From a virus, in the IMG/VR virus record IMGVR_UViG_3300033144_006696, positions 1-64,000 of that record: DNA of 64,000 bases; one strand, 5' to 3'. Positions 6,922 through 41,231 of this stretch are shown piece after piece; position 1 is the first letter of the stretch, and each line of letters begins with the position of its first letter. The translations under genes were made by a program, and so were the position numbers. The notes under the pieces were generated by a model. The model saw only the letters and a program-made list of their open reading frames with translations. It made no database searches and was not told the origin of the DNA.

Positions 6922-7455
6922 TTATCCACCATTGTATATGTTTATGAACGTATTTAAATGTCGGACTTGAGCTATTGTAATTTTTCAATTAAGACATTGT
7001 TCCGCTGCAAGATGATGACAAATAGCTTCATTAAAATCTTTGTATTGTCCGAAATTTGTCTTTTTATTATTTACTGTGATATAAGATTTATATTTTGATC
7101 TTTTATTTTTACATACACCTTTAACTCCACTTTTATTGTTTTTTAAATTTCTTATATTTCGTGTATTATATTGTTGTGATATTTCTCTGAGATTAGAAAT
7201 CCAATTATGGTGTTTTATTCTATCTTTATGATTAATATCATTTTCAGGCCAATACCCATAAATATATAACCAAGCCAAACGATGTGCAGTATAATTGTTT
7301 TTATTAATTGTTATCTAAATATATCCATCTGAATTTTTACATCCTGCAATATTTCCAATTTTAATTTTTCTTTTTGATACTTTCCATTTAAATATTCTGT
7401 TTAATGGATTGTAATTTAATTGTTTTTTCAATTCCTTGTATGTTAATTTTGCCAT
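6914..7455 (-). pseudogene. Degraded HNH-AP2 homing endonuclease
   Basis: MAKLTYKELKKQLNYNP...GYI*ITIN...AHRLAWLYIYGYWPENDINHKD..NWISNLR...NKSGVKGV; in-frame TAG at 7315-7317 and an apparent 1-nt deletion at about 6985 (TGG to TGA) before ...NSSSPTFKYV. Confidence 0.75.
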
Positions 7456-8037: not shown

Positions 8038-8748
8038 TTATTCTTCTTTTATTTTTCTGCGCTTCTTTGGTCTTGTATATGTTATATGTTTCCAAGTTTT
8101 TTTATTCCATATATTTCCCACTGTACCACCACTAACATTAAATAATCTACCAACTTCAGACTGTGTTAGTTTTTCTTTTAAACTTAATATTTTTTTAACT
8201 TCATATTCTGTAAGTTTTGCCTTTGTATTTTTTATCCCTCTTGCTGATCTTCCTTTATTTTTCATATCTTGAAAATTATCTATGTGAGTTCCAAGAAATA
8301 AATGATCTGGATTTATGCATTTAGGATTATCACATGTATGACATACCTGTTTATCTTTTGGATCAATTCCTTTTAGATACTTGAATACGTATCTTGAAGC
8401 TAATGGTGATTCTTTGCTACGTGTACCACTTATTCTTGCATATCCTTTTATAAGTGATTTTGTCCAATTCCAGCAATTTGTTTTTGGGTCAATTTCAATT
8501 CTTGAAATTACAAAATCTTTATGTGATTGTTTATTTTTATTTTTTTTACCATTTTTTGATCTTGCTTCCAGAGCAAGACAGCCACAAGATTGTGTTTTTC
8601 CTACCCCACGAACTATTGCTGTTTTTCCACAATCACATTTACATTCCCAAAAAGTACATTGATTTTTTATATATGCTAATTTTATAAATGTTAATCTTCC
8701 ACGTTTTATTCCTGTTAGTTCTAACCTTTTACTCATGATCATCCCCAC
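8038..8748 (-). CDS. HNH homing endonuclease (N-terminal CxCxCG module, HNH, C-terminal HTH)
   Basis: WECKCDCG; CWNWT; VCHTCDNPKCINPDHLFLGTHIDN; AKLTEYEVKKI. Confidence 0.85.
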   Translation of the reverse strand: MGMIMSKRLELTGIKRGRLTFIKLAYIKNQCTFWECKCDCGKTAIVRGVGKTQSCGCLALEARSKNGKKNKNKQSHKDFVISRIEIDPKTNCWNWTKSLIKGYARISGTRSKESPLASRYVFKYLKGIDPKDKQVCHTCDNPKCINPDHLFLGTHIDNFQDMKNKGRSARGIKNTKAKLTEYEVKKILSLKEKLTQSEVGRLFNVSGGTVGNIWNKKTWKHITYTRPKKRRKIKEE

Positions 8749-27970: not shown

Positions 27971-30645
27971 GAAAAAAACCACCAGTAATTTGGAAACCAT
28001 GGCCTGGAGCACAGCAGAGATTTTTGACTTGTCCTGTATGGGAATGCTTACTCCATGGCAACCGGGGCGGCGGGAAGACGGATGTGCTGATAATGGATTA
28101 TTTGCAAAATGTAGGAAAGGGGTTTGGAGCTGACTATAAAGGACTATTGCTTAGAGAGGCTACTACAGAACTCGGGGATGTGATTTCTAAAACAAAGAAA
28201 TGGATTCCAAGAATTTTTCCAATGGCAAAATTCAATAATTCTAAAAAAGTATGGACTTTTCCAGAAGGAGAAACACTATGGTTGAATTATGCAAGAGTAG
28301 ATGTGGATTATGAACAATACCACGGACATGAGTTTTGTTACGATAGTGACACAGAAATTCTTTTACCTGATAAGCAGCAGAAAAAAGCTAAAAATATAAA
28401 AATTGGTGATTTAGTTCAGACTTTACAGGGACCGAAAAAAATCACCAAAATTTTTAAATCAAAAAAGATAGGTGTTAAAGTTTCTGCTTTAGATGAGGAT
28501 TTGAATTTAATAAGTCAGCAACAGCAAGCTTTAACACATTCTGTTTTGACCAACGACGGATGGCAACGGATAGGGTTGTCCTGCTTGTTTCAAGTTTCTG
28601 AGCAATCTGAAGTTGGGAAACATTATTTAAAAGAAGTTTCTCAATTTCTTTTTGGTGTGCATCAAGAAATCCTGGCGGCTTCGCAGTTGAACCTTTGCTT
28701 GGTAGAGTTCCATTCCATTTCTGCAAATATCTCCAAATGGTATTCTTGTTTGTGTCAAATTTTTTCCCAATTTCTACATTTGATAATTTCATACTCTTCA
28801 TTTTCAAAATCTCAGATTTGTGAACTTCAAGAAAGCCTATTGGCTTGCCGCTTTGAAAAAGTTTTGGGAATCTTCGATAAAGAGTGGAAACATGAACACC
28901 AAATATTTCTGCAACTTCTTCAGCACTGTTCTTTTTTAATAGATCTTGCACATCAATTTCAAGCATCTTATTTTCATCAAAGGCTGTCCATTGTATGTCA
29001 TATTTTTGAATTATCTTCTTTACTAAAGATTCAGAAATGTCCAATAAATCAGCAGCAATATTCCTTGAAATACTATTATTCTTTGCAAATCCTTTTACTT
29101 TCTGAATTAATTCGGGATTATGATGCATTGAATGGTACTTACCAAGATGTTCAGCATGATCTTTACAGAGTATTAGATTATCAGGATGATTGTTTGAAGG
29201 ATTCTTATCATCATGGTGCGGAATTTCACCAGGAAGTAGAAAACGATTTAATTTCTGCTCCATCACAAATCTGTGTTCAAAAATACAACCTCCTTTCTGT
29301 GCATAAGGATGATTTGGGCACTTTAACAGAATGTAGCCCTTCTTATCTGGAGAAAGTCTCTTATAGACAACCTTACTCTTATGAATTTTTTCAAACAACT
29401 GCTGCATTGAATCCTGTTTCTTTTTCCGTTTCCTCATTAGAGACTCCTATTGATATGGTTGATTTTGAAGTAGAAGATGCTCACCACTATTTAACATCAA
29501 TGAACAGTATCATAGATAATGAAAAGAGTCAAGATATATTTACTGTAAGTTCCAATTGCTATATTGGTTGGGAAGAAATAAGTAACCATGCTTTACCAAA
29601 CGTCTATTTAAAATTGATGTCTTGTAATCGTTCTTCAAATCCCAAAATACCATTGAAATATAGAGCAACATGTAATCCTAGCGGCCCAGGACATCAATGG
29701 TTAAAACGAAGGTTCATTGATGCAGGACCTCCAGGGAAAATTCAAAGAGAAAAATTAGAATTTGAATATCCTGATAAAAATGGAGAAATGACAAAAACTG
29801 AATTGACAGTAGCAAGAACTCATGTTCAAAGTTATCAATCAGAGAATAAATCATTAGCTGAAGCAGATCCTTTATACATGGCCAAAATCTTTTCACTTAC
29901 CCAAGATAATGAGATGTTAAGAAAGGCATGGATTGATGGAAGTTGGGATTTATTGATTGGTGGATTTTTCACTGATGTATGGGACCCTAAAATACACGTT
30001 CTTCCAAATTTTAAACCACCAAAATCTTGGAAACTTTTTAGGAGTTTTGATTGGGGTTCTTCTAAGCCATGGGCAGTCACTTACGGAGCAGAATGTAATG
30101 GTGAACAACCAATTCCAATTGATGTTGATTTGCCATATTTTCCAAAAGGATCAGTTGTTATTTTAAATGAAATTTATGGGTGGACAGGAATTCCAAATGA
30201 GGGTGATCAAGCAATATCTTCTGAGATTGCTGAAAGGGTTTTAGCTGTTGACAATGTTTTATTTGGTGAGTATGCTATGAAAGTTATACCTGGACCTGCT
30301 GATTCTGCAATTTGGGCTGTTATTGATGGGACTTCAATTGGTGCTGCATTGACAAATTCTGGATGTAATTGGACAAGAGCGCATAAAGGACCAGGATCAA
30401 GAGTAGCTGGATGGTCAATTATTAGACAAATGTTAGGAGCAGCAAAAAGGAAAGATCTTGAACGACCACATTTATATTTCTTTCAGCAAGCAGAACACCA
30501 TATTAGAACTTTGCCATTACAACAAAGAGACAAGAAAAAACCTGAAGATCTTCAAACCGATGGGGAAGATCACATTTGTGACAGTTTACGGTATCTTTTG
30601 TCACGTAAAATGACAACAATGAAAAGACGAAAGGTAGGTATTTGA
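27967..30645 (+). CDS. terL: Terminase large subunit containing an intein
   Basis: GNRGGGKT Walker A, HEF|CYIGWEE Walker B split by intein, ATCNP, FDWG, DH.CDSLRY nuclease motifs. Confidence 0.95.
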   Translation: MRKKPPVIWKPWPGAQQRFLTCPVWECLLHGNRGGGKTDVLIMDYLQNVGKGFGADYKGLLLREATTELGDVISKTKKWIPRIFPMAKFNNSKKVWTFPEGETLWLNYARVDVDYEQYHGHEFCYDSDTEILLPDKQQKKAKNIKIGDLVQTLQGPKKITKIFKSKKIGVKVSALDEDLNLISQQQQALTHSVLTNDGWQRIGLSCLFQVSEQSEVGKHYLKEVSQFLFGVHQEILAASQLNLCLVEFHSISANISKWYSCLCQIFSQFLHLIISYSSFSKSQICELQESLLACRFEKVLGIFDKEWKHEHQIFLQLLQHCSFLIDLAHQFQASYFHQRLSIVCHIFELSSLLKIQKCPINQQQYSLKYYYSLQILLLSELIRDYDALNGTYQDVQHDLYRVLDYQDDCLKDSYHHGAEFHQEVENDLISAPSQICVQKYNLLSVHKDDLGTLTECSPSYLEKVSYRQPYSYEFFQTTAALNPVSFSVSSLETPIDMVDFEVEDAHHYLTSMNSIIDNEKSQDIFTVSSNCYIGWEEISNHALPNVYLKLMSCNRSSNPKIPLKYRATCNPSGPGHQWLKRRFIDAGPPGKIQREKLEFEYPDKNGEMTKTELTVARTHVQSYQSENKSLAEADPLYMAKIFSLTQDNEMLRKAWIDGSWDLLIGGFFTDVWDPKIHVLPNFKPPKSWKLFRSFDWGSSKPWAVTYGAECNGEQPIPIDVDLPYFPKGSVVILNEIYGWTGIPNEGDQAISSEIAERVLAVDNVLFGEYAMKVIPGPADSAIWAVIDGTSIGAALTNSGCNWTRAHKGPGSRVAGWSIIRQMLGAAKRKDLERPHLYFFQQAEHHIRTLPLQQRDKKKPEDLQTDGEDHICDSLRYLLSRKMTTMKRRKVGI
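28475..29437 (-). CDS. HNH endonuclease with multiple HTH domains, antisense inside the TerL intein
   Basis: GYILLKCPNHPYA..GG.IFEHRFVME.KL.R...E.PHHDDKNPSNNHPDNL; four HTH-like repeats (e.g. AEEVAEIFGVHVSTLYRR); AGGAG SD 7 nt before ATG. Confidence 0.9.
   Translation of the reverse strand: MRKRKKKQDSMQQLFEKIHKSKVVYKRLSPDKKGYILLKCPNHPYAQKGGCIFEHRFVMEQKLNRFLLPGEIPHHDDKNPSNNHPDNLILCKDHAEHLGKYHSMHHNPELIQKVKGFAKNNSISRNIAADLLDISESLVKKIIQKYDIQWTAFDENKMLEIDVQDLLKKNSAEEVAEIFGVHVSTLYRRFPKLFQSGKPIGFLEVHKSEILKMKSMKLSNVEIGKKFDTNKNTIWRYLQKWNGTLPSKGSTAKPPGFLDAHQKEIEKLLLNNVSQLQIAQKLETSRTTLSVAIRRWSKQNVLKLAVADLLNSNPHLKQKL
29504..29532 (-). promoter_or_regulatory. Candidate antisense sigma70 promoter for the nested HNH gene
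   Basis: TTGACT-17-TACTGT with TGn extension, inside an atypical insertion between intein blocks F and G. Confidence 0.55.
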
Positions 30646-30722: not shown

Positions 30723-31298
30723 ATGAAAAGAGTTAAAATTATTTCAGATACAATTCAAGAGTTTTGGGAGAGATATTATTTTTGTGGTAATTATTTTCAA
30801 AAGAATGGTAAAAGATTGCATAGAGAAGTTTGGAAATTCTATAAAGGAGAAATTCCCAAAGGTTTTATAGTACATCACATAAAAGAGGATAAATCTAAAA
30901 ATCAAATTGAAGATTTTGAGCTTATGATAAGAGCAAAACATGTATTACATCACATTAAAAAAAGAAAACCCATTCCAATTACTAAACAATGTAGGGAAGC
31001 AGCAAACAAATGGCATGGTAGTGAAGATGGTAGAAAATGGCATAATAAACATTATGAAAATACTAAAAAAAATTTACAAAAAAAGATAGAAAGGGAATGT
31101 TCTTGGTGTGGTGAAATTTTTGAAAGCAAAAGAAAAAATGTAGATGTATTTTGTTCTGGAAAATGTAGAACAGCCAGCAGGAAGGCTTCTGGAATTGATG
31201 ATATTGAAAAAATATGTGAAGTATGTTCTAAATTTTATATGGCAAATAAATATTCAAAGGTGAAAACTTGTTCAAAGATTTGTAAACGTAAACTTTAA
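30723..31298 (+). CDS. HNH endonuclease with C-terminal zinc ribbons
   Basis: RLHREVW...IPKGFIVHHIKEDKSKNQIEDFEL...H..HH; CSWC..FCSGKC; CEVC..CSKIC. Confidence 0.8.
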   Translation: MKRVKIISDTIQEFWERYYFCGNYFQKNGKRLHREVWKFYKGEIPKGFIVHHIKEDKSKNQIEDFELMIRAKHVLHHIKKRKPIPITKQCREAANKWHGSEDGRKWHNKHYENTKKNLQKKIERECSWCGEIFESKRKNVDVFCSGKCRTASRKASGIDDIEKICEVCSKFYMANKYSKVKTCSKICKRKL

Positions 31299-31612: not shown

Positions 31613-33139
31613 ATGATAACCCCTAAAACAGTTCAATCAAGTTCTGTAAGTACAGAACATGTTGATTATGTGAAGTTTAAAAAGCCTTGGGTACGTGTTC
31701 GTGATTGCATGGAAGGTGAAGATGCAATCAAAGATAAGGAAGAAACTTATCTTCCTCGTCCTTCTGGTATGACTGGTGATTATGCTGCTGCATATGATCC
31801 TTATAAAGAAAGAGCACATTTTCCTTTGGTTACTTCTTATGCGCTTCAAGGAGCTTTGGGTATTGTTATTACTAAACTTCCTGAATTTAATGTGCCAAAA
31901 GAATTAGAATACATCATCAAGACAGCAACTAAAGATGGTAGGTCATTGCAGCAACTTTTTCTTGATATGATTATTGAGATATTTCAGACAGGAAGATCTC
32001 CAATTTTAGTGGATATTGTTTCTGCTAAGAATGAGTTTAGGTTTGTGCAATATAAAGCAGAAGATTTTATTAATTGGAAAACTGCTTTGGTTGAAGATGA
32101 AAGGAATCTTATTCTTGGAGTTTTGAAAGAAGTACGTCCATCCAGTTTAGATATATTTTCTCATGACACTGATGATGTATATAGAGTTCTCAATATGAAT
32201 GAAAATGGTGAATATTACACCACCCTTTATACAGATGATGGAGTAAATTTAACATCTGAAATTATTCCTCATTTTAGAGGAAAATCAATAAAAGAGATTC
32301 CTCTTTTTCTTGCAGGATCAATTAACAATTCATTTGATCTGCAACCAATACCTTTGATATCTGTAGCCAATTGTTCTATCCAAATTTATCGGAAAGAAGC
32401 TGATCTTGCAAATTCAGAATATTTATCATGTAATCCGACTCTTTGTATTGTTGGCGCATCTAATGATGGAGATCTTCCAAATGTTGTGGGTTCTTCAGTC
32501 ATGATTGTGTTGCCTAACGAGCAAGCAAGAGTTTTCTATACAGTGACAGACACAGCAGCACTAACACACGTTAAACAGCATATAACCGATCTTTATGACG
32601 AAGCTATTCGTCATGGTGTTGCTATTCTTGACGCACGAAAGGGTGTTGAAGCAGCAGAGTCATTGAGAATCAGGCAATCAACACAATCAGCTTCTATTTA
32701 TTCTGTGTATCTTGCAGCTATGAATGCCATTAAGGAAGGCTTAATAGCAATGTGTAAATGGGGTGAATATAATGAAGAAGATATTATTCTTGATGCTCCA
32801 TCTTCATTGACACAAGGTATTCCTGATTCATCTGTACTGAAAGAAATTATTGAAGGATTTTCAACAGAGGTTATTCCACTTCCAGTTATTCATAGATATC
32901 TTGTTTATTCTGGCCTTTTAGACCAAACTGTGGGATTTGAAGATTATATAGAACAATTAAATGCTTATAAACCAACTGTTAAGACTGATAATAATGGTGC
33001 AGTTGCTGATGTATCTGATACAGTTGAAGAAGATTCTTTGGATAAAGATGGTAATATTATAAAAACTAAATCAATAAAAAAACAAACAACATCCGCAGAA
33101 ATAAAAAAAGAAAGTGAAGGACCGGAAGATACTAATTGA
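31613..33139 (+). CDS. Portal protein (DUF4055-like)
   Basis: W..VRD..EGEDAIK...TYLPRP...Y..YKERA.F; position and size after TerL. Confidence 0.85.
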   Translation: MITPKTVQSSSVSTEHVDYVKFKKPWVRVRDCMEGEDAIKDKEETYLPRPSGMTGDYAAAYDPYKERAHFPLVTSYALQGALGIVITKLPEFNVPKELEYIIKTATKDGRSLQQLFLDMIIEIFQTGRSPILVDIVSAKNEFRFVQYKAEDFINWKTALVEDERNLILGVLKEVRPSSLDIFSHDTDDVYRVLNMNENGEYYTTLYTDDGVNLTSEIIPHFRGKSIKEIPLFLAGSINNSFDLQPIPLISVANCSIQIYRKEADLANSEYLSCNPTLCIVGASNDGDLPNVVGSSVMIVLPNEQARVFYTVTDTAALTHVKQHITDLYDEAIRHGVAILDARKGVEAAESLRIRQSTQSASIYSVYLAAMNAIKEGLIAMCKWGEYNEEDIILDAPSSLTQGIPDSSVLKEIIEGFSTEVIPLPVIHRYLVYSGLLDQTVGFEDYIEQLNAYKPTVKTDNNGAVADVSDTVEEDSLDKDGNIIKTKSIKKQTTSAEIKKESEGPEDTN

Positions 33140-33241
33140 TATTATCTTAATAATACAATATGTTTTGATTGATTAAATAACCGGAGTTTTGAGAACTCTA
33201 AACTGGAATTCTGAGAATTCCCAAATTAGGAGATTTATAAC

Positions 33242-34021
33242 ATGACAGATTTCAATTTTATTGAAGATGAGGAACTGAGAACTAAAGCAGAAGATGTTCA
33301 CAAGATTGATGTGGATGAACTGACTGTCAATTTGACAAACAGTGCTAAGACTCAGATTGAGGAAGCCGTTGAAGGCTTGAAAACTAAAAATGCTGAAATT
33401 TTAGACGAAAAGAAAGCACTCGCACAGAATCTCAAGAAATTTGATGGTTTTGATGTTGAAGTTGCCAAAACTGCCACTGAATTTTATGAAGCACATAAGG
33501 ATGCTGAATTTTTGAAAGATGGAACTGTTGAAGAATTAATTGAAAAGAAAACATCCCAGTTGAATTCTGATCATGAAGTCCAGGTAAATGAACTTACTGA
33601 AAAACTGTCCGCAGCAGTTGAACACGGAGCAACATACCAATTACTCTTTGAATCTAAAGTCATTGATGATGGTTTAAGAGCTGAAGCAGTGAAACAGGGT
33701 GTTCGTGTTGAAGCTGTTGATGATATCATTCTACGGGGTCGTGGTGTGTTCTCACTTGATGAGAAAAAGCAGATTGAAGCTCGTGATTCTGAAGGTAAAC
33801 TTGCTATCACTGAAGATAAAAAAGTTCTGAATGTTAAAAATTGGATTACTGGATTAAAAGATACTTCTCCACATTATTGGCCAGATTCCAGAGGTGCTGG
33901 TGCTCATGGTGGAGCTGGTGGTAATGATTCTGATTACACAGTTAAATTGGCGGAACTTGCTGCAAAGGGTGATATGACAGGTTATCGTGCTTTACGTGAT
34001 AAACATCAAAAAGCTAAATAA
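33242..34021 (+). CDS. Capsid scaffolding protein
   Basis: Coiled coil, GLK.KN.EIL.EKK, W...LK...PHYWP.S.G.GA.G C-terminus. Confidence 0.8.
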   Translation: MTDFNFIEDEELRTKAEDVHKIDVDELTVNLTNSAKTQIEEAVEGLKTKNAEILDEKKALAQNLKKFDGFDVEVAKTATEFYEAHKDAEFLKDGTVEELIEKKTSQLNSDHEVQVNELTEKLSAAVEHGATYQLLFESKVIDDGLRAEAVKQGVRVEAVDDIILRGRGVFSLDEKKQIEARDSEGKLAITEDKKVLNVKNWITGLKDTSPHYWPDSRGAGAHGGAGGNDSDYTVKLAELAAKGDMTGYRALRDKHQKAK

Positions 34022-34048
34022 AGATAATTTGTAAATATTGATTGATTA

Positions 34049-34077
34049 TTGACTGTTTATTGAATTTGTAGTATAGT
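34049..34077 (+). promoter_or_regulatory. sigma70-like promoter of the endonuclease cassette
   Basis: TTGACT-17-TATAGT. Confidence 0.65.
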
Positions 34078-34097
34078 TAATTTAAATAAATGTACAA

Positions 34098-34152
34098 AAT
34101 AAGGGATAGGGTCGCTCCTGAAAGATGGTTTACTCAGCCATTTTCCCTTATT
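34098..34152 (+). promoter_or_regulatory. Structured 5' leader element, copy A
   Basis: 9-bp closing stem AATAAGGGA/TCCCTTATT enclosing TAGGGTCGCTCCTGAAAG and a second hairpin. Confidence 0.6.
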
Positions 34153-34181
34153 AAATTTTGAGTATTAAATGGAGATTTAAA

Positions 34182-36035
34182 ATGGCGCCTAAATTGACAC
34201 TCTCTCAATTTATTCAAAAAGCAAATCAGGTACATAATTCAAATTATTCTTACGAAAAAACAACATACCAAAAATCTAATATTAAAACTACAGTAACCTG
34301 CAATGTTCATGGCAATTTTTCATTAACACCAAATAATCATTTGTCAGGAAAAGGATGTCCTGAATGTGCTTTAATTAAACGAGCAAATTCTTGTAAACTT
34401 ACTATTCAAGAATTTATTAAAAAAGCAAATAAAGTTCATTTAAACAAATATGATTATTCTAATTCAGTTTATTTGGGGATGGATAAAAAAATATCAATCA
34501 TTTGTCCCGTTTCTAATCATGGTGAATTTAGCCAATTAGCATGTAATCATGTTTTTGGAAAAGGATGTCCTAAATGCAAATCTGATAAAACATCTCTTCG
34601 TTGTAGACATTCAACAAAAGATTTTATCCGTAAAGCTAAAGAAATCCACGGAAATACTTATGATTATTCTATGGTTGATTATATAAGTGGTAAATTAAAA
34701 ATTAAAATTATCTGTAAAGAGCATGGTATTTTTGAACAAGTTCCACAAAGCCATTTGAGTGATAGTGGATGTCCAAAATGTGTTGGTTTTAATTCAACAT
34801 TTGAAGATTTTATTAGAGAAGCAAAATTAATTCACGGTGATAAATATGATTATTCATTAGTTAATGAGACATATAAAAATACTCGTGTAAAAATTCCAAT
34901 TATTTGTCCTGTCCATGGACAATTTTTCCAAACACCTTTTGTACATTTAAGAGGTAATGGTTGCAATTTATGTGGTTATGATACTACAGCGAAAAAGAGA
35001 ACATTAACTACTTCTGATTTTATAGAACGCTCAAAATTAATCCATAATAATTTCTATGATTATTCAAAATCAATATACATAAAGAATAAAACAGAAATTT
35101 CTATTTGCTGCCCTCTTCATGGATTATTTACTCAGTCTCCAAATAACCATCTTGCAGGAAAAGGATGTCCAAAATGTGTAGGTAGGATTTCAAAAGAAGA
35201 AATAGAAGTAGCTGATTTTTTGAAATCTTTAAATGTACAAGTACAAACATCAAACAAATCTATTCTTAATACAAAAGAATTGGATATTGTTCTTCCTGAT
35301 TTTAAAATTGCAGTAGAATATAATGGATTATATTGGCATTCTTCAGCAAGTCTAAGTTTTGGAAAATATAATCATTATAATAAAACTCAAGAATGTTTAG
35401 AAAAAGGGTATAGATTAGTTCATATTTTTAGTGATGATTGGAAGTTTAAAAAAGAAATAATTCAATCAATTTTATCTAATTTTGTGAATAAAACTCAAAT
35501 AAAATATTTTGCAAGAAAATGTATTTGTAAAAAAATACAAAAAGATTTAGCAGTAGAATTTCTTAATAAGAATCATCTTCAAGGATATGTTATAAGTTCT
35601 TTTCATTATGGTTTATTTTATAATGATAAACTTTTGCAAGTGATGTCTTTTAAAAAAGACAAACAAAATTTTAATTTAGTACGTCTTGCTGCTAAATTAA
35701 ATATTCAGGTAGTTGGTGGTGCAAATAAATTATTTAAACATTTTTGTAGAAATGAGGAATTTAAATCTGTTTTTACATTTGCTGATTTATATTTATTTAA
35801 TGGCCGTGTTTATGAACATCTTGGATTTAAGAAAATTAAAGAAATTCCAATTGATTACTCTTATGTGTATAAGGGAAAAAGAAAACATAAATTTGGTTTC
35901 AGAAGAAAACGTCTTAAAACATTATTGAATAATTTTGATGAAACTAAATCAGAATTATGGAATACTAGAAATAATGGAATTTACAGAATTTATGATTGTG
36001 GTAAAAATAAATATGAATTTGTAAAAAATACTTGA
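34182..36035 (+). CDS. Free-standing homing endonuclease-like protein (5 DUF723-like Zn modules + PD-(D/E)xK domain + C-terminal domain)
   Basis: 5x C..HG.F.Q.P..HL.G.GC..C; ELDIVLPDFKIAVEYNGLYWH; ARKC...FL..NHLQG; IYDCG; ATG 34182 with GGAG SD. Confidence 0.8.
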   Translation: MAPKLTLSQFIQKANQVHNSNYSYEKTTYQKSNIKTTVTCNVHGNFSLTPNNHLSGKGCPECALIKRANSCKLTIQEFIKKANKVHLNKYDYSNSVYLGMDKKISIICPVSNHGEFSQLACNHVFGKGCPKCKSDKTSLRCRHSTKDFIRKAKEIHGNTYDYSMVDYISGKLKIKIICKEHGIFEQVPQSHLSDSGCPKCVGFNSTFEDFIREAKLIHGDKYDYSLVNETYKNTRVKIPIICPVHGQFFQTPFVHLRGNGCNLCGYDTTAKKRTLTTSDFIERSKLIHNNFYDYSKSIYIKNKTEISICCPLHGLFTQSPNNHLAGKGCPKCVGRISKEEIEVADFLKSLNVQVQTSNKSILNTKELDIVLPDFKIAVEYNGLYWHSSASLSFGKYNHYNKTQECLEKGYRLVHIFSDDWKFKKEIIQSILSNFVNKTQIKYFARKCICKKIQKDLAVEFLNKNHLQGYVISSFHYGLFYNDKLLQVMSFKKDKQNFNLVRLAAKLNIQVVGGANKLFKHFCRNEEFKSVFTFADLYLFNGRVYEHLGFKKIKEIPIDYSYVYKGKRKHKFGFRRKRLKTLLNNFDETKSELWNTRNNGIYRIYDCGKNKYEFVKNT

Positions 36036-36060
36036 CAAATGAATATTCTTTGTTTAGTGT
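36032..36060 (+). promoter_or_regulatory. sigma70-like promoter upstream of the major capsid gene
   Basis: TTGACA-17-TAGTGT, followed by two hairpins in the leader. Confidence 0.55.
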
Positions 36061-36206
36061 AATGTTATATAGTGGTGTTTCTGGGAAACACCACATCAAT
36101 TTAGAAAAAGTCTTGGGGGCTACGATTACTTATTTTGTGAATAAGTAACTTAGTCCCTTTTTTTATGTAAAATATTTAATAAACAATTAAAGTAAGGAGA
36201 TTTATC

Positions 36207-37379
36207 ATGGCAGCAGGCGACAACATCTGGAGCCACCCTTCTATCATCGCGGCAGAGGCGTTAACACATCTCGAGGACGCACTTGTCATTGCACCACTTT
36301 GTGCTACAGACAAGACATCTGATTTTTCAAATAAAGCCAACGGTTGGAAAGTTGGTGATTCTGTTTCTTTTCGGACTCATGGTGAATATGAAGTTGATGA
36401 ATTTGCAACTACCATTAGCACACAGTCTATCGGAACCTCTACACGTCCCATGGAGATTGAAAAACATTTCGATATCTCTGTTGAAGTCGGTGCAAGAGAA
36501 TACTCTTTGGATCTGGATTCTTTTGTTGAACAGGTTATTCAGCCTGCAACATATAAACTGGCAGAAAGTGTTGACACTTATATAGGAACGAAAATCCTTG
36601 AAGCTGCTGGAGCTTATTACAGCACTGGTCTTTTTACAACTGCCGCTGACATTGCACTTGCCCGTAAAACTGCAACCATCCAGCAATTGGCAATGAATCG
36701 TTTTTGTCTTGTTGATTTGGATATTGAAGCAATTCTTCTTGGACAGACTTGGTTTAATCAGTCTAACTCTCGTGGCTCAGATGGTGAAATGACTCTTCGT
36801 AATGCAGATATGGGTCGTGTAATGGGTATGGATTTCTTTTCCAGTATCGCTTTTCCTACTGAAACTGCTGATTATACTGTGGGTACATTTATTGGTGTAA
36901 CTAATAATACCACTGCAACCAAAAACTTGATTGGTGATTCTCTTTTGATTGTTGATGGTGTTGCAGCTTCCCAGTTTACCCTTGTTGCTGGTGATCGTCT
37001 GTATATTCCTGGTGTCCGTCGTCCTCTAAAAGTTAAAACTGCTGTTGGGGATACTGACGCAACTACTTCAATTGTCCTGGTTGATCCTATTACTGAAATT
37101 ATTCCTGATGATACTGCTGTAACTGTTATTGCTTCTGGAAAAGATGTTCAACATCATGGTGTAATTATGGATGATCGTTCTCTTGCTGTTGCATTTCCTA
37201 TGCTTGATCTTCCTGAAGATCGTGTTGCTGCTACTGCGTCCAATAATGGCATTAGTATTCGTATCGTTAAAGGGTATGATTTGAGTTCCAAGAAAACTAC
37301 GATGTCCCTGGATCTTCTATGTGGTGCTTTTGCTCTTGATCCTCGTCGAATGACTCTTGTTGGTGATAAATCTTCTTAA
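36207..37379 (+). CDS. Major capsid protein, P22 coat (gp5) family
   Basis: IIAAEAL..LED.LV...KVGDSV.FR...IEKHFD.S...LDLDSF.EQVIQPA..LAESVD; SLDLLCG C-terminus. Confidence 0.85.
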   Translation: MAAGDNIWSHPSIIAAEALTHLEDALVIAPLCATDKTSDFSNKANGWKVGDSVSFRTHGEYEVDEFATTISTQSIGTSTRPMEIEKHFDISVEVGAREYSLDLDSFVEQVIQPATYKLAESVDTYIGTKILEAAGAYYSTGLFTTAADIALARKTATIQQLAMNRFCLVDLDIEAILLGQTWFNQSNSRGSDGEMTLRNADMGRVMGMDFFSSIAFPTETADYTVGTFIGVTNNTTATKNLIGDSLLIVDGVAASQFTLVAGDRLYIPGVRRPLKVKTAVGDTDATTSIVLVDPITEIIPDDTAVTVIASGKDVQHHGVIMDDRSLAVAFPMLDLPEDRVAATASNNGISIRIVKGYDLSSKKTTMSLDLLCGAFALDPRRMTLVGDKSS

Positions 37380-37426
37380 TTTTTTGAATAGAGTAAAATT
37401 TTAATTCTAAATAAAAGGAAATAATT

Positions 37427-37615
37427 ATGAAGGTTTATGATAAAGAAGGAAAAGTTGTGAATGCAGATAAGAATCAAATTGAGATTCTTATGAATGCAGG
37501 ATGGACTAAAACTAAACCAGAACTTATTATTAAGGAAGAGCTTAAAAAGGATACTGTAGTCAAAGCAATTCCTAAAGTAAAGAAATCCATAAGAAAAATT
37601 TCCTCTAAAGTATAA
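37427..37615 (+). CDS. Small hypothetical virion protein
   Basis: ORF after MCP, AAGGA SD. Confidence 0.55.
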   Translation: MKVYDKEGKVVNADKNQIEILMNAGWTKTKPELIIKEELKKDTVVKAIPKVKKSIRKISSKV

Positions 37616-37624
37616 GGGGGAATT

Positions 37625-38134
37625 ATGGCTTTAATTGCTACATTAGGTGCTACTGATGCAAATTCATACGTTAACAGAGCTGAGGCTGATCTCTACTTTG
37701 CAGATCGAATGCATTCCTCTACTTGGACAGCATTAACAGATGCGGTGAAAGATCAATTATTGATAACTTCTTCTCGTATGTTAGATTGGCATGTTAAATG
37801 GAAGGGCACAAAGACTGAAGACACTCAAGCAATGCAGCACCCAAGGGAGGATATGCTTCGTCCAGATGGAACTGAAATTGATGATGGTGTTCTTGCTCCT
37901 GAAGTTAAAATTGCTGTGTATGAATTAGCTCTTGTGAATATTACATCAGATAGAATGATTGATGATCCTTTAGCTGGAATAGGTCAATTAAAAGCTGGTT
38001 CTTTAATGATTAAAGCTGGCCCTGAAAAGCCAAACCAAACCAACGCTAAACCAGTGCCCTCACATATATATTCAATATTATCAGATTTGTATGTGCAGGG
38101 CAGAGGAAGTATAGTTAGATTATTAAGGGCATAA
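37625..38134 (+). CDS. Head-tail adaptor-like protein
   Basis: ANSYV...AD.YF..R...W...L...SR.LD...W.G...Q....PR...P.EVK.A..ELAL. Confidence 0.7.
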   Translation: MALIATLGATDANSYVNRAEADLYFADRMHSSTWTALTDAVKDQLLITSSRMLDWHVKWKGTKTEDTQAMQHPREDMLRPDGTEIDDGVLAPEVKIAVYELALVNITSDRMIDDPLAGIGQLKAGSLMIKAGPEKPNQTNAKPVPSHIYSILSDLYVQGRGSIVRLLRA

Positions 38135-38135
38135 A

Positions 38136-38498
38136 ATGGCAAATCTTAGAAATACATTCTTATCTGGTCTTGAAACTATCTTCAATGTAATGAATGAAGC
38201 AGTTAAAACTGGAATATATACTGTTGAAGAAGATGATGGGTTTAATAATTCTGTCATCACTTCTGATGTTGTTAGATGTATTTTTGAGAATTTTTCTGAA
38301 AAAGATATTCATGATCTTTCTTTTTATGAATTAATTCAACCCAAAGATATTAAAGGATTAATACCATTTGTTGATTTAGTTAATTGTGAAATTACAACTC
38401 AAGCTTCTATCATGTTTGGAACTGAAAAATATATGGTAGAAGCTTATGATGTTGATCCAATGAGTGTTGTTTTTACAACCCTTTTGAGGAAAGTTTAA
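38136..38498 (+). CDS. Putative head closure protein
   Basis: Position and size in neck module. Confidence 0.5.
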   Translation: MANLRNTFLSGLETIFNVMNEAVKTGIYTVEEDDGFNNSVITSDVVRCIFENFSEKDIHDLSFYELIQPKDIKGLIPFVDLVNCEITTQASIMFGTEKYMVEAYDVDPMSVVFTTLLRKV

Positions 38499-38499
38499 T

Positions 38500-39003
38500 A
38501 TGAATTTAAACGAAATTATCAAAGGATTGGCTAAAATTACAGAGGGATCAGCTATCAAAGCTAATGTTTCTCGTCTTTTATACAAAAAAGATAATGAATT
38601 AATTGATTTGTTAAAAGAGCATTCACCATACGACCCGGAACACAAAGATCCTCATTTTCGGGATCAATGGAAAGCATCAAGAAAAAAGTACGGCAATTCA
38701 AAAGTTCTGGCTCAGATTATTGTTTCCAATAGTACACCAATATATGGACAATTTTTAGTAGCTGGTGCAGAACTTAATCAAGCTCCTTGGTATTATCCTA
38801 ATAGGATTCGTAAAGGTAAGAAAAAGGGTCAGTTTAAGAAAGGTACTGGAAAACTTACAAAAGTTCAAGGTAAAGTTTGGGCTGGTGGATTAGATCCAGG
38901 TCATATTAAAACAGTTGGAGGTCCAATTGCGCAAGTTTTAACAAAATTTATTGATAAATTTACACAAGAAGTATCTGATGAATTTGTGAAGGGGTTCTTC
39001 TAA
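38500..39003 (+). CDS. Putative neck/tail completion protein (HK97 gp10-like)
   Basis: SPYD...FRDQW, NSTPIYG..L motifs; position. Confidence 0.55.
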   Translation: MNLNEIIKGLAKITEGSAIKANVSRLLYKKDNELIDLLKEHSPYDPEHKDPHFRDQWKASRKKYGNSKVLAQIIVSNSTPIYGQFLVAGAELNQAPWYYPNRIRKGKKKGQFKKGTGKLTKVQGKVWAGGLDPGHIKTVGGPIAQVLTKFIDKFTQEVSDEFVKGFF

Positions 39004-39503
39004 TGGGTATTCAAGGTATTCAAGCATTTTTGAATGTTATCTGTGCAGGAGATAACAATAGAGAAGATGCTTTACAAGAAATATATGAACGCATTAAAGT
39101 AAAAAGGATTTCTTTGGGTCTTACTTCTTTTAAAAGGACTCCAACTGAACCAATAGTTGAAAAAGATATGCCTTGTGTGTTTATGCTTGAAGGTCCTGAT
39201 AATATTATTGAATATTCCAGCAGGGGTAATATGGGATATCCTGTTAGAAGAACTTTAGAAGTTACTTTAGAATTAGTAACCAATTCCAATATAGATATTA
39301 AATCTAAATTGAGAGATTTAAGAAAAGCTGTTTTTGCTGAAAGGGATATTGATCCTCCTGTTTATAATCCAAGATTAGTAGATGTTGGACAAACTGGGTT
39401 TATTAGTGAAAATAGAACTGAGGGTCCTTCAGGATATGGTTTACAAGATATTTTAGGAATGTCTCTTGTGCTTGATTTGGTATATACAGATGATATTATC
39501 TGA
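39003..39503 (+). CDS. Putative tail terminator protein
   Basis: Position immediately before tail tube, D.PCVF.LEG motif. Confidence 0.55.
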   Translation: MGIQGIQAFLNVICAGDNNREDALQEIYERIKVKRISLGLTSFKRTPTEPIVEKDMPCVFMLEGPDNIIEYSSRGNMGYPVRRTLEVTLELVTNSNIDIKSKLRDLRKAVFAERDIDPPVYNPRLVDVGQTGFISENRTEGPSGYGLQDILGMSLVLDLVYTDDII

Positions 39504-39520
39504 TTTTAGGAAGGTTTAAA

Positions 39521-39574
39521 ATGGTAAATACTTCAAACAATTATAGTCTTCTCCTAATTTTTGTGATATACTAA
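39521..39574 (+). pseudogene. Vestigial duplicate of the tail-tube gene 5' end
   Basis: SD + ATG GTA AAT ACT TCA AAC AAT TAT AGT CTT (MVNTSNNYSL) versus tube start MAVSPNTDNYSL. Confidence 0.45.
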
Positions 39575-39581
39575 TGCAAAC

Positions 39582-39636
39582 TACAGTGGATAGGATCGCA
39601 TCCGAAAAGTGGCATCTCAACCACCCCTCCACTGTA
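39582..39636 (+). promoter_or_regulatory. Structured 5' leader element, copy B
   Basis: 9-bp closing stem TACAGTGGA/TCCACTGTA enclosing TAGGATCGCATCCGAAAAG and GTGG/CCAC hairpin; preceded by TGaTATACT extended -10. Confidence 0.6.
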
Positions 39637-39675
39637 CTTCTTTTTGAGAATATTGCTATGAGAGGTAATATTAAT

Positions 39676-40191
39676 ATGATTTACAAAGATTTGCCAAGAG
39701 CTGATTATCTTAGATCCATTTTTAATTACAACAAAAAGACTGGAAAATTAATCTGGAAAAAGAAAACTGCTAATTGTGTTAAGATTGGAACTGAGGCAGG
39801 GTTTGTATCAGGCAGAACTGGAAGATTGCAAGTTTCTATAAAAGGTGAAGTTTTTTATGTTCCAAGAATTATTTGGAAAATGGTAAAAGGCAGAATTCCA
39901 AATTATAAACAAATTGATCATGATGATAGAAATCCTCTTAATAATGCTTGGGATAATTTGTCTTTGAAAACCCAGTCAGAAAATATGAAAAATTCTTCAC
40001 TTCAACGTAATAACACATCAGGTATTGTTGGTGTAAATTTTCATAAATTTTCTGGGTTATGGAAAGGTAGTATTTCTAATAATAAGAAAATAGAAACAGT
40101 ATATTTTAAAACCATGGATGAAGCCATAGATTGGAGGAGAAGCAAAGAAAGAGAGTATGGATTTCATAAGAACCATGGAAAGACTTTCTAA
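39676..40191 (+). CDS. HNH-AP2 homing endonuclease
   Basis: FNYNKKTGKLIW...IDHDDRNPLNNAWDNL...N..NTSGIVGV; ATG 39676 with GAGG SD. Confidence 0.85.
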   Translation: MIYKDLPRADYLRSIFNYNKKTGKLIWKKKTANCVKIGTEAGFVSGRTGRLQVSIKGEVFYVPRIIWKMVKGRIPNYKQIDHDDRNPLNNAWDNLSLKTQSENMKNSSLQRNNTSGIVGVNFHKFSGLWKGSISNNKKIETVYFKTMDEAIDWRRSKEREYGFHKNHGKTF

Positions 40192-40214
40192 CAATAATTA
40201 TAGGAGATTTAATC

Positions 40215-41231
40215 ATGGCAGTAAGTCCAAATACTGACAATTATAGCCTCGGGAAAGGAGTGGTGTATTTTGATCAGCTTGTTTCTAGTGTCTATCAAGG
40301 AGAAAGGGATCTTGGTAATGCGCCCTCTTTCACATTTAATATTGCACTTGAAACACTTGAGCATTTCAGCTCACGAGGTGGTTTGAAAGCGAAAGATAAG
40401 AGTATTATTTCTCAGATCACTCCAGGTCTGGCATTCACTCTTGATGAAGTTAACAAAGAAAATATGGCATTGCTCACATTGGGCGATACCACTACTGTTA
40501 CACAAACTGCTGGATCTATAGTGGCTGAAGTTGTTACAGCACACATGGACAAACGAGTAGATCTTGATTATCGTGGAATTGAGAATTGGAATCTTACTTA
40601 TGATTCAGGTACAGTTATCTTTGTTGTTGGTGAGGTTGTTACTGGTGCTGGTGGTGCAACTGGTGTTGTTCTTTCTGTTACAGGAACTTCTGTCGCAGGT
40701 ACTTTGGTAATTGCAAAAACAAATGCAACTTTGTTTGTTACTGCTGAAGCTATTACTGGTTCCGGTACTGGTGCAGCATCTGTGACTACTGCAATTCCCA
40801 CTTTATCAACAACTCCTGTTATGCTTGTTCAAGATTCTGCCGATACAGTTACTTACGTTGCTGGGACTGATTATGAAATCTCAACAACTTTGAGTGATGA
40901 TGATATTGGACGAATTAAGTTTATTGGGAGTACCATTACTGAAAGTGATGAAATTCATATTACTTATGGCCATGCAGCACTCACGTATACAAACATTGCA
41001 GCCTTTGCAAACACACAGATCATTGGAAAACTCAGGTTTGTTTCTGATAATCCCGCTGGTAATCAGCAGGAACTGGAAGCATGGAGTGTTTCTCTTGTAC
41101 CTGCTGGGGATACTGCCATGATTGGTGACGATTGGTCTACTCTCCAATTTAATGGTGAAATTTTGAAAGACGAAACAAATCACCCACTTACTCCGTATAT
41201 GAATATCATTATGGATCAATCTCTCACATAA
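40215..41231 (+). CDS. Major tail (tube) protein with inserted beta-rich domain
   Basis: DNYSLGKG..YF...RDLGNAP.F....E.LEH.SSR.G...D; GD.A.IGDDW..L.F.GE.L. Confidence 0.8.
   Translation: MAVSPNTDNYSLGKGVVYFDQLVSSVYQGERDLGNAPSFTFNIALETLEHFSSRGGLKAKDKSIISQITPGLAFTLDEVNKENMALLTLGDTTTVTQTAGSIVAEVVTAHMDKRVDLDYRGIENWNLTYDSGTVIFVVGEVVTGAGGATGVVLSVTGTSVAGTLVIAKTNATLFVTAEAITGSGTGAASVTTAIPTLSTTPVMLVQDSADTVTYVAGTDYEISTTLSDDDIGRIKFIGSTITESDEIHITYGHAALTYTNIAAFANTQIIGKLRFVSDNPAGNQQELEAWSVSLVPAGDTAMIGDDWSTLQFNGEILKDETNHPLTPYMNIIMDQSLT

Follow-up and report, generated by a model that had tools for sequence, protein, structure and literature searches.

The two leader RNAs described here, each lying ahead of an endonuclease gene in a phage genome, are members of the int-alpA family, and we propose, with a probability of about 0.6, that they control nuclease translation in cis by means of competing pseudoknots, within cassettes composed of a promoter, a leader and a nuclease gene. 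A rigid three-way junction would form the leader, and the apical loop of its third stem, P3, would pair with either of two segments of the downstream tail, never with both. With the loop on a decoy located 4–10 nt past the closing stem P1, the ribosome-binding site would be free; with the loop on the Shine–Dalgarno region, 17–24 nt past P1, it would be masked. The balance of the two pseudoknots would then set, or switch, the yield of a potentially harmful downstream protein. The proposal builds on directly supported features: the leaders have a covarying structure, their loops are complementary to their tails, they sit at a fixed position ahead of start codons, they belong to a known RNA family and they are inherited together with the nuclease gene.

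Two nuclease leaders fold as three-way junctions

The window is the whole stretch of viral DNA that was analysed (64,000 nt). An earlier note had described two three-way junctions in it, with closing stems of unrelated sequence and a common core, each behind its own promoter. Both junctions are recovered by folding and by a covariance model (R1, below); their P1 and P3 stems are unrelated, and the promoters are TTGACT-17-TATAGT for copy A and an extended −10 element, TG-n-TATACT, for copy B.

Cassette A
34049..34077, + strand, promoter: TTGACT, 17-nt spacer, TATAGT; consensus scan, 10/12 matches
34098..34152, + strand, leader RNA copy A, three-way junction by fold
34098–34106 with 34144–34152, + strand, P1, 9-bp closing stem
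34107–34108 (UA), 34109–34118 (P2) and 34119–34124 (joining strand), + strand, junction
34125–34141, + strand, P3, with its loop around 34129–34137
34159..34164, + strand, decoy (site 1), 6 nt complementary to the P3 loop; duplex −6.8 kcal/mol
34171..34174, + strand, site 2, the Shine–Dalgarno GGAG of nuclease A; position from sequence
34182..36035, + strand, nuclease A gene, 617 aa, zinc-finger modules and a restriction-endonuclease-like domain; homing endonuclease family

Cassette B
39537..39549, + strand, left 13-nt direct repeat flanking the cassette
39564..39572, + strand, extended −10 element, TG-n-TATACT, read from sequence
39582..39636, + strand, leader RNA copy B, three-way junction by fold
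39582–39590 with 39628–39636, + strand, P1, 9-bp closing stem
39591–39592 (UA), 39593–39603 (P2) and 39604–39608 (GAAAA), + strand, junction
39609–39612 with 39621–39624, + strand, P3; loop 39613–39620
39644..39649, + strand, decoy (site 1), 6 nt complementary to the P3 loop; −5.8 kcal/mol
39659..39665, + strand, site 2, Shine–Dalgarno region, 5 bases complementary to the P3 loop; −5.5 kcal/mol
39676..40191, + strand, nuclease B gene, 171 aa, HNH_3 homing-type endonuclease
40237..40249, + strand, right copy of the 13-nt repeat, spaced 700 bp from the left one and lying within the true start of gene 40215

In both copies, the 5′ half of P1 is followed by an unpaired UA, a short conserved P2 hairpin, a joining strand rich in A, the P3 hairpin and then the 3′ half of P1. 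The junction is the RNAfold minimum-energy fold of copy B (z = −3.4), and the minimum-energy fold of copy A is a slightly extended version of it (z = −2.3). Copy A deviates slightly in its joining strand (UGAAAG), in its U-rich 3′ joining strand and in a P2 loop that is one base shorter; compensatory changes are present in its orthologues. The distance from the leader to the nuclease start is 29 nt for copy A (ATG 34182) and 39 nt for copy B (ATG 39676), and an in-frame ATG at 39658, also behind copy B, lacks a ribosome-binding site.

A small conserved three-way junction in mobile DNA, with GAAA and CU joining strands that loosely recall the hammerhead, might suggest a self-cleaving ribozyme, as the earlier note had allowed, or a DNA-level site such as a homing target or a recombination site. 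The hammerhead's catalytic core, in which CUGAUGA joins stems I and II and the other strands carry GAAA and UH, is not found in the leaders. Their strand between P1 and P2 is 2 nt long (UA) where the hammerhead needs 7, and Rfam scans reporting matches up to E = 10 contained no ribozyme family. The G–U pairs and the strand-specific position ahead of start codons argue for RNA over duplex DNA, and we regard a ribozyme or a DNA site as very improbable. Two further readings were rejected: a tRNA-like structure (no T arm; P3 loops without U33) and a terminator (P1 is not generally followed by a U-run).

The element always shares the strand of its downstream gene and lies directly 5′ of it, with the start codon 26–36 nt past P1 in nearly all members and, in many, a −10 box 3–9 nt 5′ of P1. 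Extended −10 boxes occupy the position of the cassette A promoter in the orthologous cassettes of phages L252, L257 and L261. A U-rich run follows P1 in copy B, in several members and in the Rfam consensus. The upstream promoter and this U-run are what one would expect from an independent, trans-acting small RNA that is made from its own promoter and ended by P1 and the U-run, and int-alpA carries the Rfam type 'Gene; sRNA'. However, copy A and many members have no U-run 3′ of P1, the spacing to the following start codon is constant, the loop covaries with the downstream gene's own ribosome-binding region, and the invariable same-strand position directly before a gene also counts against a small RNA, an explanation that we find improbable.

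Both leaders belong to the int-alpA family

Copy B matches the Rfam family RF02996 (int-alpA) at 36.0 bits over the full model length, the gathering score being 35.8, and sister copies elsewhere among phages reach 46 and 38.9 bits. A 161-nt scan of copy A, with E up to 10, yielded no Rfam match, because the P2 loop of this copy falls one base short of the family's usual length. The Rfam check suggested in the earlier note is thereby borne out for B, which reaches the gathering score, and not for A. A gathering-threshold Rfam scan of the whole window returned no match; B surfaces only with laxer filters or in a genome search. The covariance model R1, which was built without copies A and B from seven foreign phage copies, undoubted relatives with scores of 38.9–46 bits against RF02996, recovers both of them, B at 39.5 bits (E = 6e-9) and A at 31.8 bits (E = 1e-6), while the next best match in the window scores 10.8 bits. 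The two copies share a 12-mer where P1 meets P2; the window contains it twice, versus 0.16 occurrences expected from shuffles. The int-alpA layout, P1/UA/P2/GAA-rich strand/P3/short pyrimidine strand/P1′ with covarying P1 and P3, is present here. Copies A and B are int-alpA family members, B a canonical one and A a one-base-shorter variant; the leaders are not a new RNA class, int-alpA being already catalogued.

The family's name refers to integrative elements of proteobacteria, in which the RNA stands between an integrase gene and alpA. The copies described here lie outside that context, which is descriptive and no part of the model. The family is reportedly one candidate RNA of Weinberg et al. 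2017. It is not discussed in the main text of that paper (PMC5737381), and the passages returned from matching full texts in a literature search for 'int-alpA' do not concern the RNA.

A search for RF02996 in three arbitrary genomes gave no match. Canonical int-alpA RNAs, present in 12 of 151 sampled Gammaproteobacteria, have the same design of loop, decoy and ribosome-binding site as the phage copies, and one canonical member (L300) has the same P2 as copy A. They occur in chromosomal elements, about 8 nt past the stop codon of an upstream gene, whereas the copies described here belong to promoter-bearing phage nuclease cassettes. For the genes 3′ of the canonical RNAs, neither Pfam nor PADLOC gave a match.

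The P3 loop is complementary to two sites in the tail

We quantified the pairing in 32 distinct sequences, using an alignment that was fitted to the model. In this alignment, 97.6% of cells are paired, compared to 61.7% in shuffles and at most 48% in slid controls; in 13 of the 15 pairs, both partners vary. The covariation and the promoter placement support the earlier note's view of a functional covarying cis-RNA at the 5′ end of nuclease messages.

The P3 loop is complementary to two tail sites, the decoy (4–10 nt after P1) and the Shine–Dalgarno region (17–24 nt after P1). Across 26 non-redundant phage members, the longest loop-to-tail complement has a mean length of 5.6 nt versus 2.96 nt for permuted loops, and a second, non-overlapping site has 4.2 nt versus 1.46 nt. 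A set of 18 canonical gammaproteobacterial int-alpA RNAs replicates the pairing (5.56 and 4.06 nt versus 4.00 and 2.65 nt for permuted loops), and none of 2000 loop permutations among members reaches the observed complementarity (26 phage plus 18 canonical sequences). The two pairings are similar in strength, with means of −6.2 and −5.7 kcal/mol, and in 18 of 31 members the decoy pairing is the more stable one. For copy B, the pairing energy at site 2 nearly equals that of the decoy (−5.5 vs −5.8 kcal/mol); for copy A, only about 3 bp are possible between site 2 and the P3 loop (−2.9 kcal/mol), and its decoy covaries with the loop in the orthologues of L252, L257, L261 and L267.

We infer that these loop-to-tail pairings form in vivo and affect translation; a ligand, a protein or folding kinetics might choose between them. 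Of the functions offered in the earlier note, an expression throttle would fit best, given a P3 loop complementary to the ribosome-binding region. The preference for the decoy could mean that the ribosome-binding site is mostly free, and masking of the Shine–Dalgarno sequence would be weak in copy A and its close orthologues, where about 3 bp can form.

Mutually exclusive pairings of similar strength also resemble an expression platform, and about 20 near-invariant core bases are kept across phages whose local G+C ranges from 0.38 to 0.69. Both features would suit a riboswitch-like sensor, in which binding of a small molecule or a universal host factor to the junction and P2 would choose between the decoy (on) and the ribosome-binding site (off). 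However, P2 is freely replaceable, which leaves only about 7–9 conserved junction bases, and the very mixed downstream genes suggest no ligand; Rfam scans matched no known riboswitch family. Such a sensor appears unlikely to us. We hold it equally doubtful that the int-alpA fold is a true two-state translational switch, attached by mobile elements to harmful genes (homing nucleases, TnpB, island cargo). Here the junction would hold the P3 loop within reach of either the decoy or the ribosome-binding site, and the partner would depend on a universal cue, be it a metabolite, an ion, the ribosome or co-transcriptional timing; if this were true, the fold would be an orphan riboswitch-like device widespread in phages.

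A less likely variant of the two-state switch is a 5′ structure that resists exonucleases. Taken as an explanation of its own, the junction and a loop-to-tail pseudoknot would act as a 5′-terminal stabiliser, protecting the message from 5′-end-dependent decay. In many members, a few bases at most separate the beginning of the element from the predicted start of transcription, and the element shares its topology with the flavivirus xrRNAs (viral exonuclease-resistant RNAs), where the apical loop of a three-way junction pairs with the strand that directly follows the closing stem. A stabiliser would leave the second complementary site, at the ribosome-binding region, unexplained; the canonical members, so soon after an upstream stop codon, are not at a 5′ end, and many hosts are without a 5′-to-3′ exonuclease. 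There is little probability, in our estimate, that stabilisation is the leader's role.

The leaders are co-inherited with mobile nuclease genes

Each copy is the 5′ leader of a self-contained mobile cassette that comprises a promoter, the leader and a homing-type nuclease gene. Nuclease A, whose gene has a low G+C content (0.23–0.29), matches Pfam DUF4379, DUF723 and MTES_1575 (weak) as well as PHROG 559 (E = 8e-150) and PHROG 3339; nuclease B matches Pfam HNH_3 (E = 4e-14) and PHROG 99 (E = 1e-53). Cassette B is a 700-bp insertion with 13-nt flanking repeats, unique among 41 related phages; in the relatives, only 20–60 nt separate the two genes that flank the site. The left repeat sits in a degenerate duplicate (39508–39549) of the start of gene 40215, which covers the gene's ribosome-binding site and first codons.

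In the 41 related phages, the leader is present only where the nuclease A gene has been inserted, and it is found in every relative that has the region ahead of nuclease A on its contig (L252, L257, L259, L261 and L267). Relatives without this homing endonuclease gene (HEG) gave no leader match, including eight that were searched with filters off. The leader is co-inherited with the nuclease gene. The earlier suggestion that the element travels with nucleases agrees with its place in inserted cassettes among related phages. A megablast search of positions 33000–41000 against the phage collection returned no match. The leaders sit at two places in the structural module of a 124-kb phage, one flanked by scaffold and coat genes and the other by head-tail and tail genes.

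The P2 sequence type found here is virus-specific: 27 of 35 pattern matches are real in viral contigs versus 1–2 of 100 in bacterial genomes. The 17-nt core pattern has at least 120 matches in bacterial genomes, of which 1–2 of the first 100 are real according to the model, and most of these bacterial matches are due to chance. The P2 sequence differs in the second copy of L119 and in canonical int-alpA, and two further copies in the present genome have a P2 consisting of a 7-bp arm with 9–10-nt loops; Rfam scans of these two long-P2 copies gave no int-alpA match. A loose pattern match at 55703 proved to be coding sequence and not a leader copy.

Homing-type nucleases or TnpB-like proteins make up 12 of 23 downstream genes, a count from a biased sample, because a pattern drawn from this window served to collect the phage members. 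About half of the phage copies precede other genes, including a helicase, a glycosyltransferase and genes of unknown function, and the leader lies ahead of only one of the six HNH_3 genes of this genome. The association of the leader with nucleases is strong but not exclusive, and the earlier claim of a new, nuclease-specific element is not supported for a member of int-alpA with these neighbours. A link to COG3860, mentioned in the same note, found no backing in the Rfam scans.

Implications and comparison with known control RNAs

The competing-pseudoknot model would give int-alpA, typed as an sRNA by Rfam, a concrete cis mechanism in which a decoy and a ribosome-binding site vie for one loop. 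One branch of the family, specific to viruses, travels from phage to phage at the head of homing-nuclease cassettes. Confirmation of the model would explain how free-standing nuclease genes inside essential late operons are kept at a tolerable dose, and the leader would supply a compact, portable translational control part. For annotation, the leader marks cassette boundaries and true start codons.

In the pseudoknot-type translational riboswitches preQ1-II and SAM-II, a loop or strand pairs with the 3′ tail that holds the Shine–Dalgarno sequence. The leaders likewise have a hairpin loop complementary to such a tail; unlike these riboswitches, they have a replaceable P2 and no Rfam riboswitch match. 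A literature search that combined homing endonucleases with pseudoknots returned nothing relevant.

In the T4-type HEGs I-TevI, I-TevII, I-TevIII, segB and mobE, RNA hairpins sequester the ribosome-binding site (PMC2988022). The two systems have no sequence or family relationship. They are alike in that RNA structure can mask the ribosome-binding site of a HEG, in a dedicated promoter immediately 5′ and in the presumed purpose, which is to limit or time nuclease synthesis (PMC2988022). In T4, the local hairpin exists only on read-through transcripts, and the late promoter starts inside it (PMC2988022). In contrast, the leaders described here are conserved, transferable three-way junctions that lie wholly 3′ of the promoter, and masking is predicted to occur through a loop-to-tail pseudoknot that competes with a decoy.

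Structure and family membership of the two leader RNAs

The earlier note had placed two structured RNAs ahead of two nuclease genes, and its positions for both elements are correct. The two loci contain the following features.

34049-34077, sigma-70-type promoter (10/12 matches), upstream of copy A
34098-34152, leader RNA copy A (RNAfold and covariance model)
Downstream of copy A, nuclease A, a 617-aa zinc-finger/restriction-endonuclease-like homing endonuclease (PHROG 559, E = 8e-150)
39564-39572, extended -10 element, upstream of copy B
39582-39636, leader RNA copy B (RNAfold, covariance model and RF02996)
Downstream of copy B, nuclease B, a 171-aa HNH_3 endonuclease

Each copy is closed by a 9-bp stem, P1, of unrelated sequence, followed in the 3′ direction by an unpaired UA, the hairpin arm P2, an A-rich joining strand, the second arm P3 and one to three pyrimidines that lead into the 3′ strand of P1. 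P2 is short and nearly identical between the copies, with a loop one base shorter in copy A, and the P3 sequences are unrelated. A 12-mer common to both occurs twice in the window, compared to 0.16 expected occurrences. The junction is the minimum-energy fold of copy B (z = -3.4), and RNAfold yields it in a slightly extended form for copy A (z = -2.3).

In an Rfam search with laxer filters, copy B matched RF02996 (int-alpA RNA) over the full model length with 36.0 bits (gathering score 35.8), and copy A had no match to this model. Pattern scans of viral contigs yielded about 27 further elements with a common core and differing P1 and P3 sequences, three of which scored 46, 38.9 and 30.6 bits against RF02996. 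A covariance model trained on seven of these foreign copies, to which neither window copy contributed, scored copy B at 39.5 bits and copy A at 31.8 bits, with the next window match at 10.8 bits. Across 32 distinct sequences, 13 of 15 pairs have changes on both sides, and 97.6% of cells are paired, compared to 61.7% in shuffles and at most 48% with slid partners, in an alignment whose fitting to the model somewhat favours the structure. Copy B is an int-alpA member and copy A is a divergent member.

The virus record is 123,866 bp long and the window covers its first 64 kb; its second half contains two more divergent copies (G000, coordinates in the whole record).

G000 86225-86289 (L125:2425-2489), divergent leader copy
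G000 116441-116506 (L126:12741-12806), divergent leader copy

Both keep the junction, have a 7-bp P2 arm, share an identical P1 and carry P3 loops complementary to their tails, the segments 3′ of P1. Near-identical promoters precede them, and the genes that follow are paralogues of 204 and 189 aa, on the + strand amid - strand genes, with no Pfam or PHROG family. Second leader copies also lie 0.5-1.7 kb from the first in other phage contigs, at L099:5506-5554(-) and L119:2017-2068(+), the latter with a different, compensated P2 sequence.

Complementarity of the P3 loop to two tail sites

Two tail segments complement the P3 loop: site 1, a decoy 4-10 nt past P1, and site 2, located 17-24 nt past P1, which is the downstream gene's Shine-Dalgarno region. 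The start codon lies 26-36 nt past P1 in nearly all members. Among 26 non-redundant members, the longest complement averages 5.6 nt and the second, non-overlapping one 4.2 nt; permuting loops among these members gave 2.96 ± 0.39 and 1.46 ± 0.38 nt, and the observed values were reached in 0 of 2000 permutations. Canonical int-alpA RNAs, fetched from 12 of 151 sampled Gammaproteobacteria, have complements of 5.56 and 4.06 nt versus 4.00 and 2.65 nt when permuted, with no permutation as high. In some members (L036, L034 and L066), the tail sites are unlike a Shine-Dalgarno sequence and still match their own loop; the match is therefore loop-specific, rather than a general purine-rich resemblance. 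In copy A orthologues, decoy and loop covary.

The calculated duplex energies at the decoy and the Shine-Dalgarno site are -5.8 and -5.5 kcal/mol for copy B, -6.8 and -2.9 kcal/mol for copy A, and on average -6.2 and -5.7 kcal/mol across 31 members, with the decoy stronger in 18 of them. The canonical RNAs (L290-L308, Gammaproteobacteria) begin about 8 nt past the upstream gene's stop codon, and the genes after them, with products of 107-333 aa, match nothing in Pfam or PADLOC.

Insertion of the two cassettes

Cassette A, carrying copy A and nuclease A, was compared across 41 related phages found via their coat protein. The scaffold-coat gap is about 200-230 nt in most of them, and six have a nuclease A homologue between the scaffold and coat genes. 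The leader precedes it in all five with that region on the contig (L252, L257, L259, L261 and L267); the contig of the sixth, L249, is cut. A leader search in relatives lacking the homing endonuclease gene, eight of them with filters off, gave no match. The insertion point is bounded by the scaffold stop codon on one side and by a conserved coat promoter and leader on the other, and the cassette's G+C is below that of its flanks.

At 36010-36206, a promoter-like site of its own and a structured leader serve the coat gene; this leader, which is unrelated to int-alpA, consists of a perfect small hairpin, a long G-rich stem and a T-run, and is kept in the nuclease-less relatives L248, L254, L258 and L262. 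Two other relatives carry further insertions in this structural module, neither with a detectable leader: portal and scaffold are separated by an HNH_3-like gene in one (L247:3346-3729), and scaffold and coat by an unexplained 1.3-kb gap in the other (L250:3503-4851).

Cassette B is found in this genome only, as a 700-bp insertion at a site that spans 20-60 nt in relatives. Its borders (39508-39549 and 40197-40249) carry a 13-nt direct repeat, whose two copies (39537-39549 and 40237-40249) are 700 bp apart. Just upstream, the ribosome-binding site and opening codons of the target gene, 40215, recur as a degenerate duplicate, which has left a short relic reading frame from 39521.

Of the 23 downstream genes across the family, 10 encode nucleases of the HNH, endonuclease VII or homing type, and TnpB-like proteins account for two more. 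The remaining genes code for a helicase, a glycosyltransferase and a replication-like protein, or have no known function. The pattern used to collect members came from this window and may bias the set towards a nuclease-linked lineage. This genome carries six HNH_3 genes, and the leader precedes just one of them; the following HNH_3-domain matches have none of int-alpA type.

7159-7290(-)
8275-8400(-)
29162-29275(-)
30813-30941(+)
G000 106329-106454(-)

One of these five sits inside a 1269-aa open frame.

A proposed mechanism of translational control

The leader, whose structure, covariation and placement are shown, is best read as an element that controls translation in cis. Its junction would position the P3 loop for pairing with either the decoy or the ribosome-binding region. 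A loop on the decoy would leave the ribosome-binding site free, and a loop on the ribosome-binding region would mask it. We infer that these pairings form in vivo and affect translation, and some factor may choose between them. P2 is exchangeable for quite different arms, which speaks against a ligand pocket in P2; only the junction bases remain conserved.

Because the RNA family is already catalogued, with the Rfam type small RNA, these leaders are not a new RNA class; to our knowledge, the decoy/ribosome-binding-site design and the cassette association are absent from its Rfam description. The closest known working parallel is found in T4, where RNA structure masks the ribosome-binding sites of homing endonuclease messages (PMC2988022), though those masking structures are unrelated in form to the int-alpA leader.
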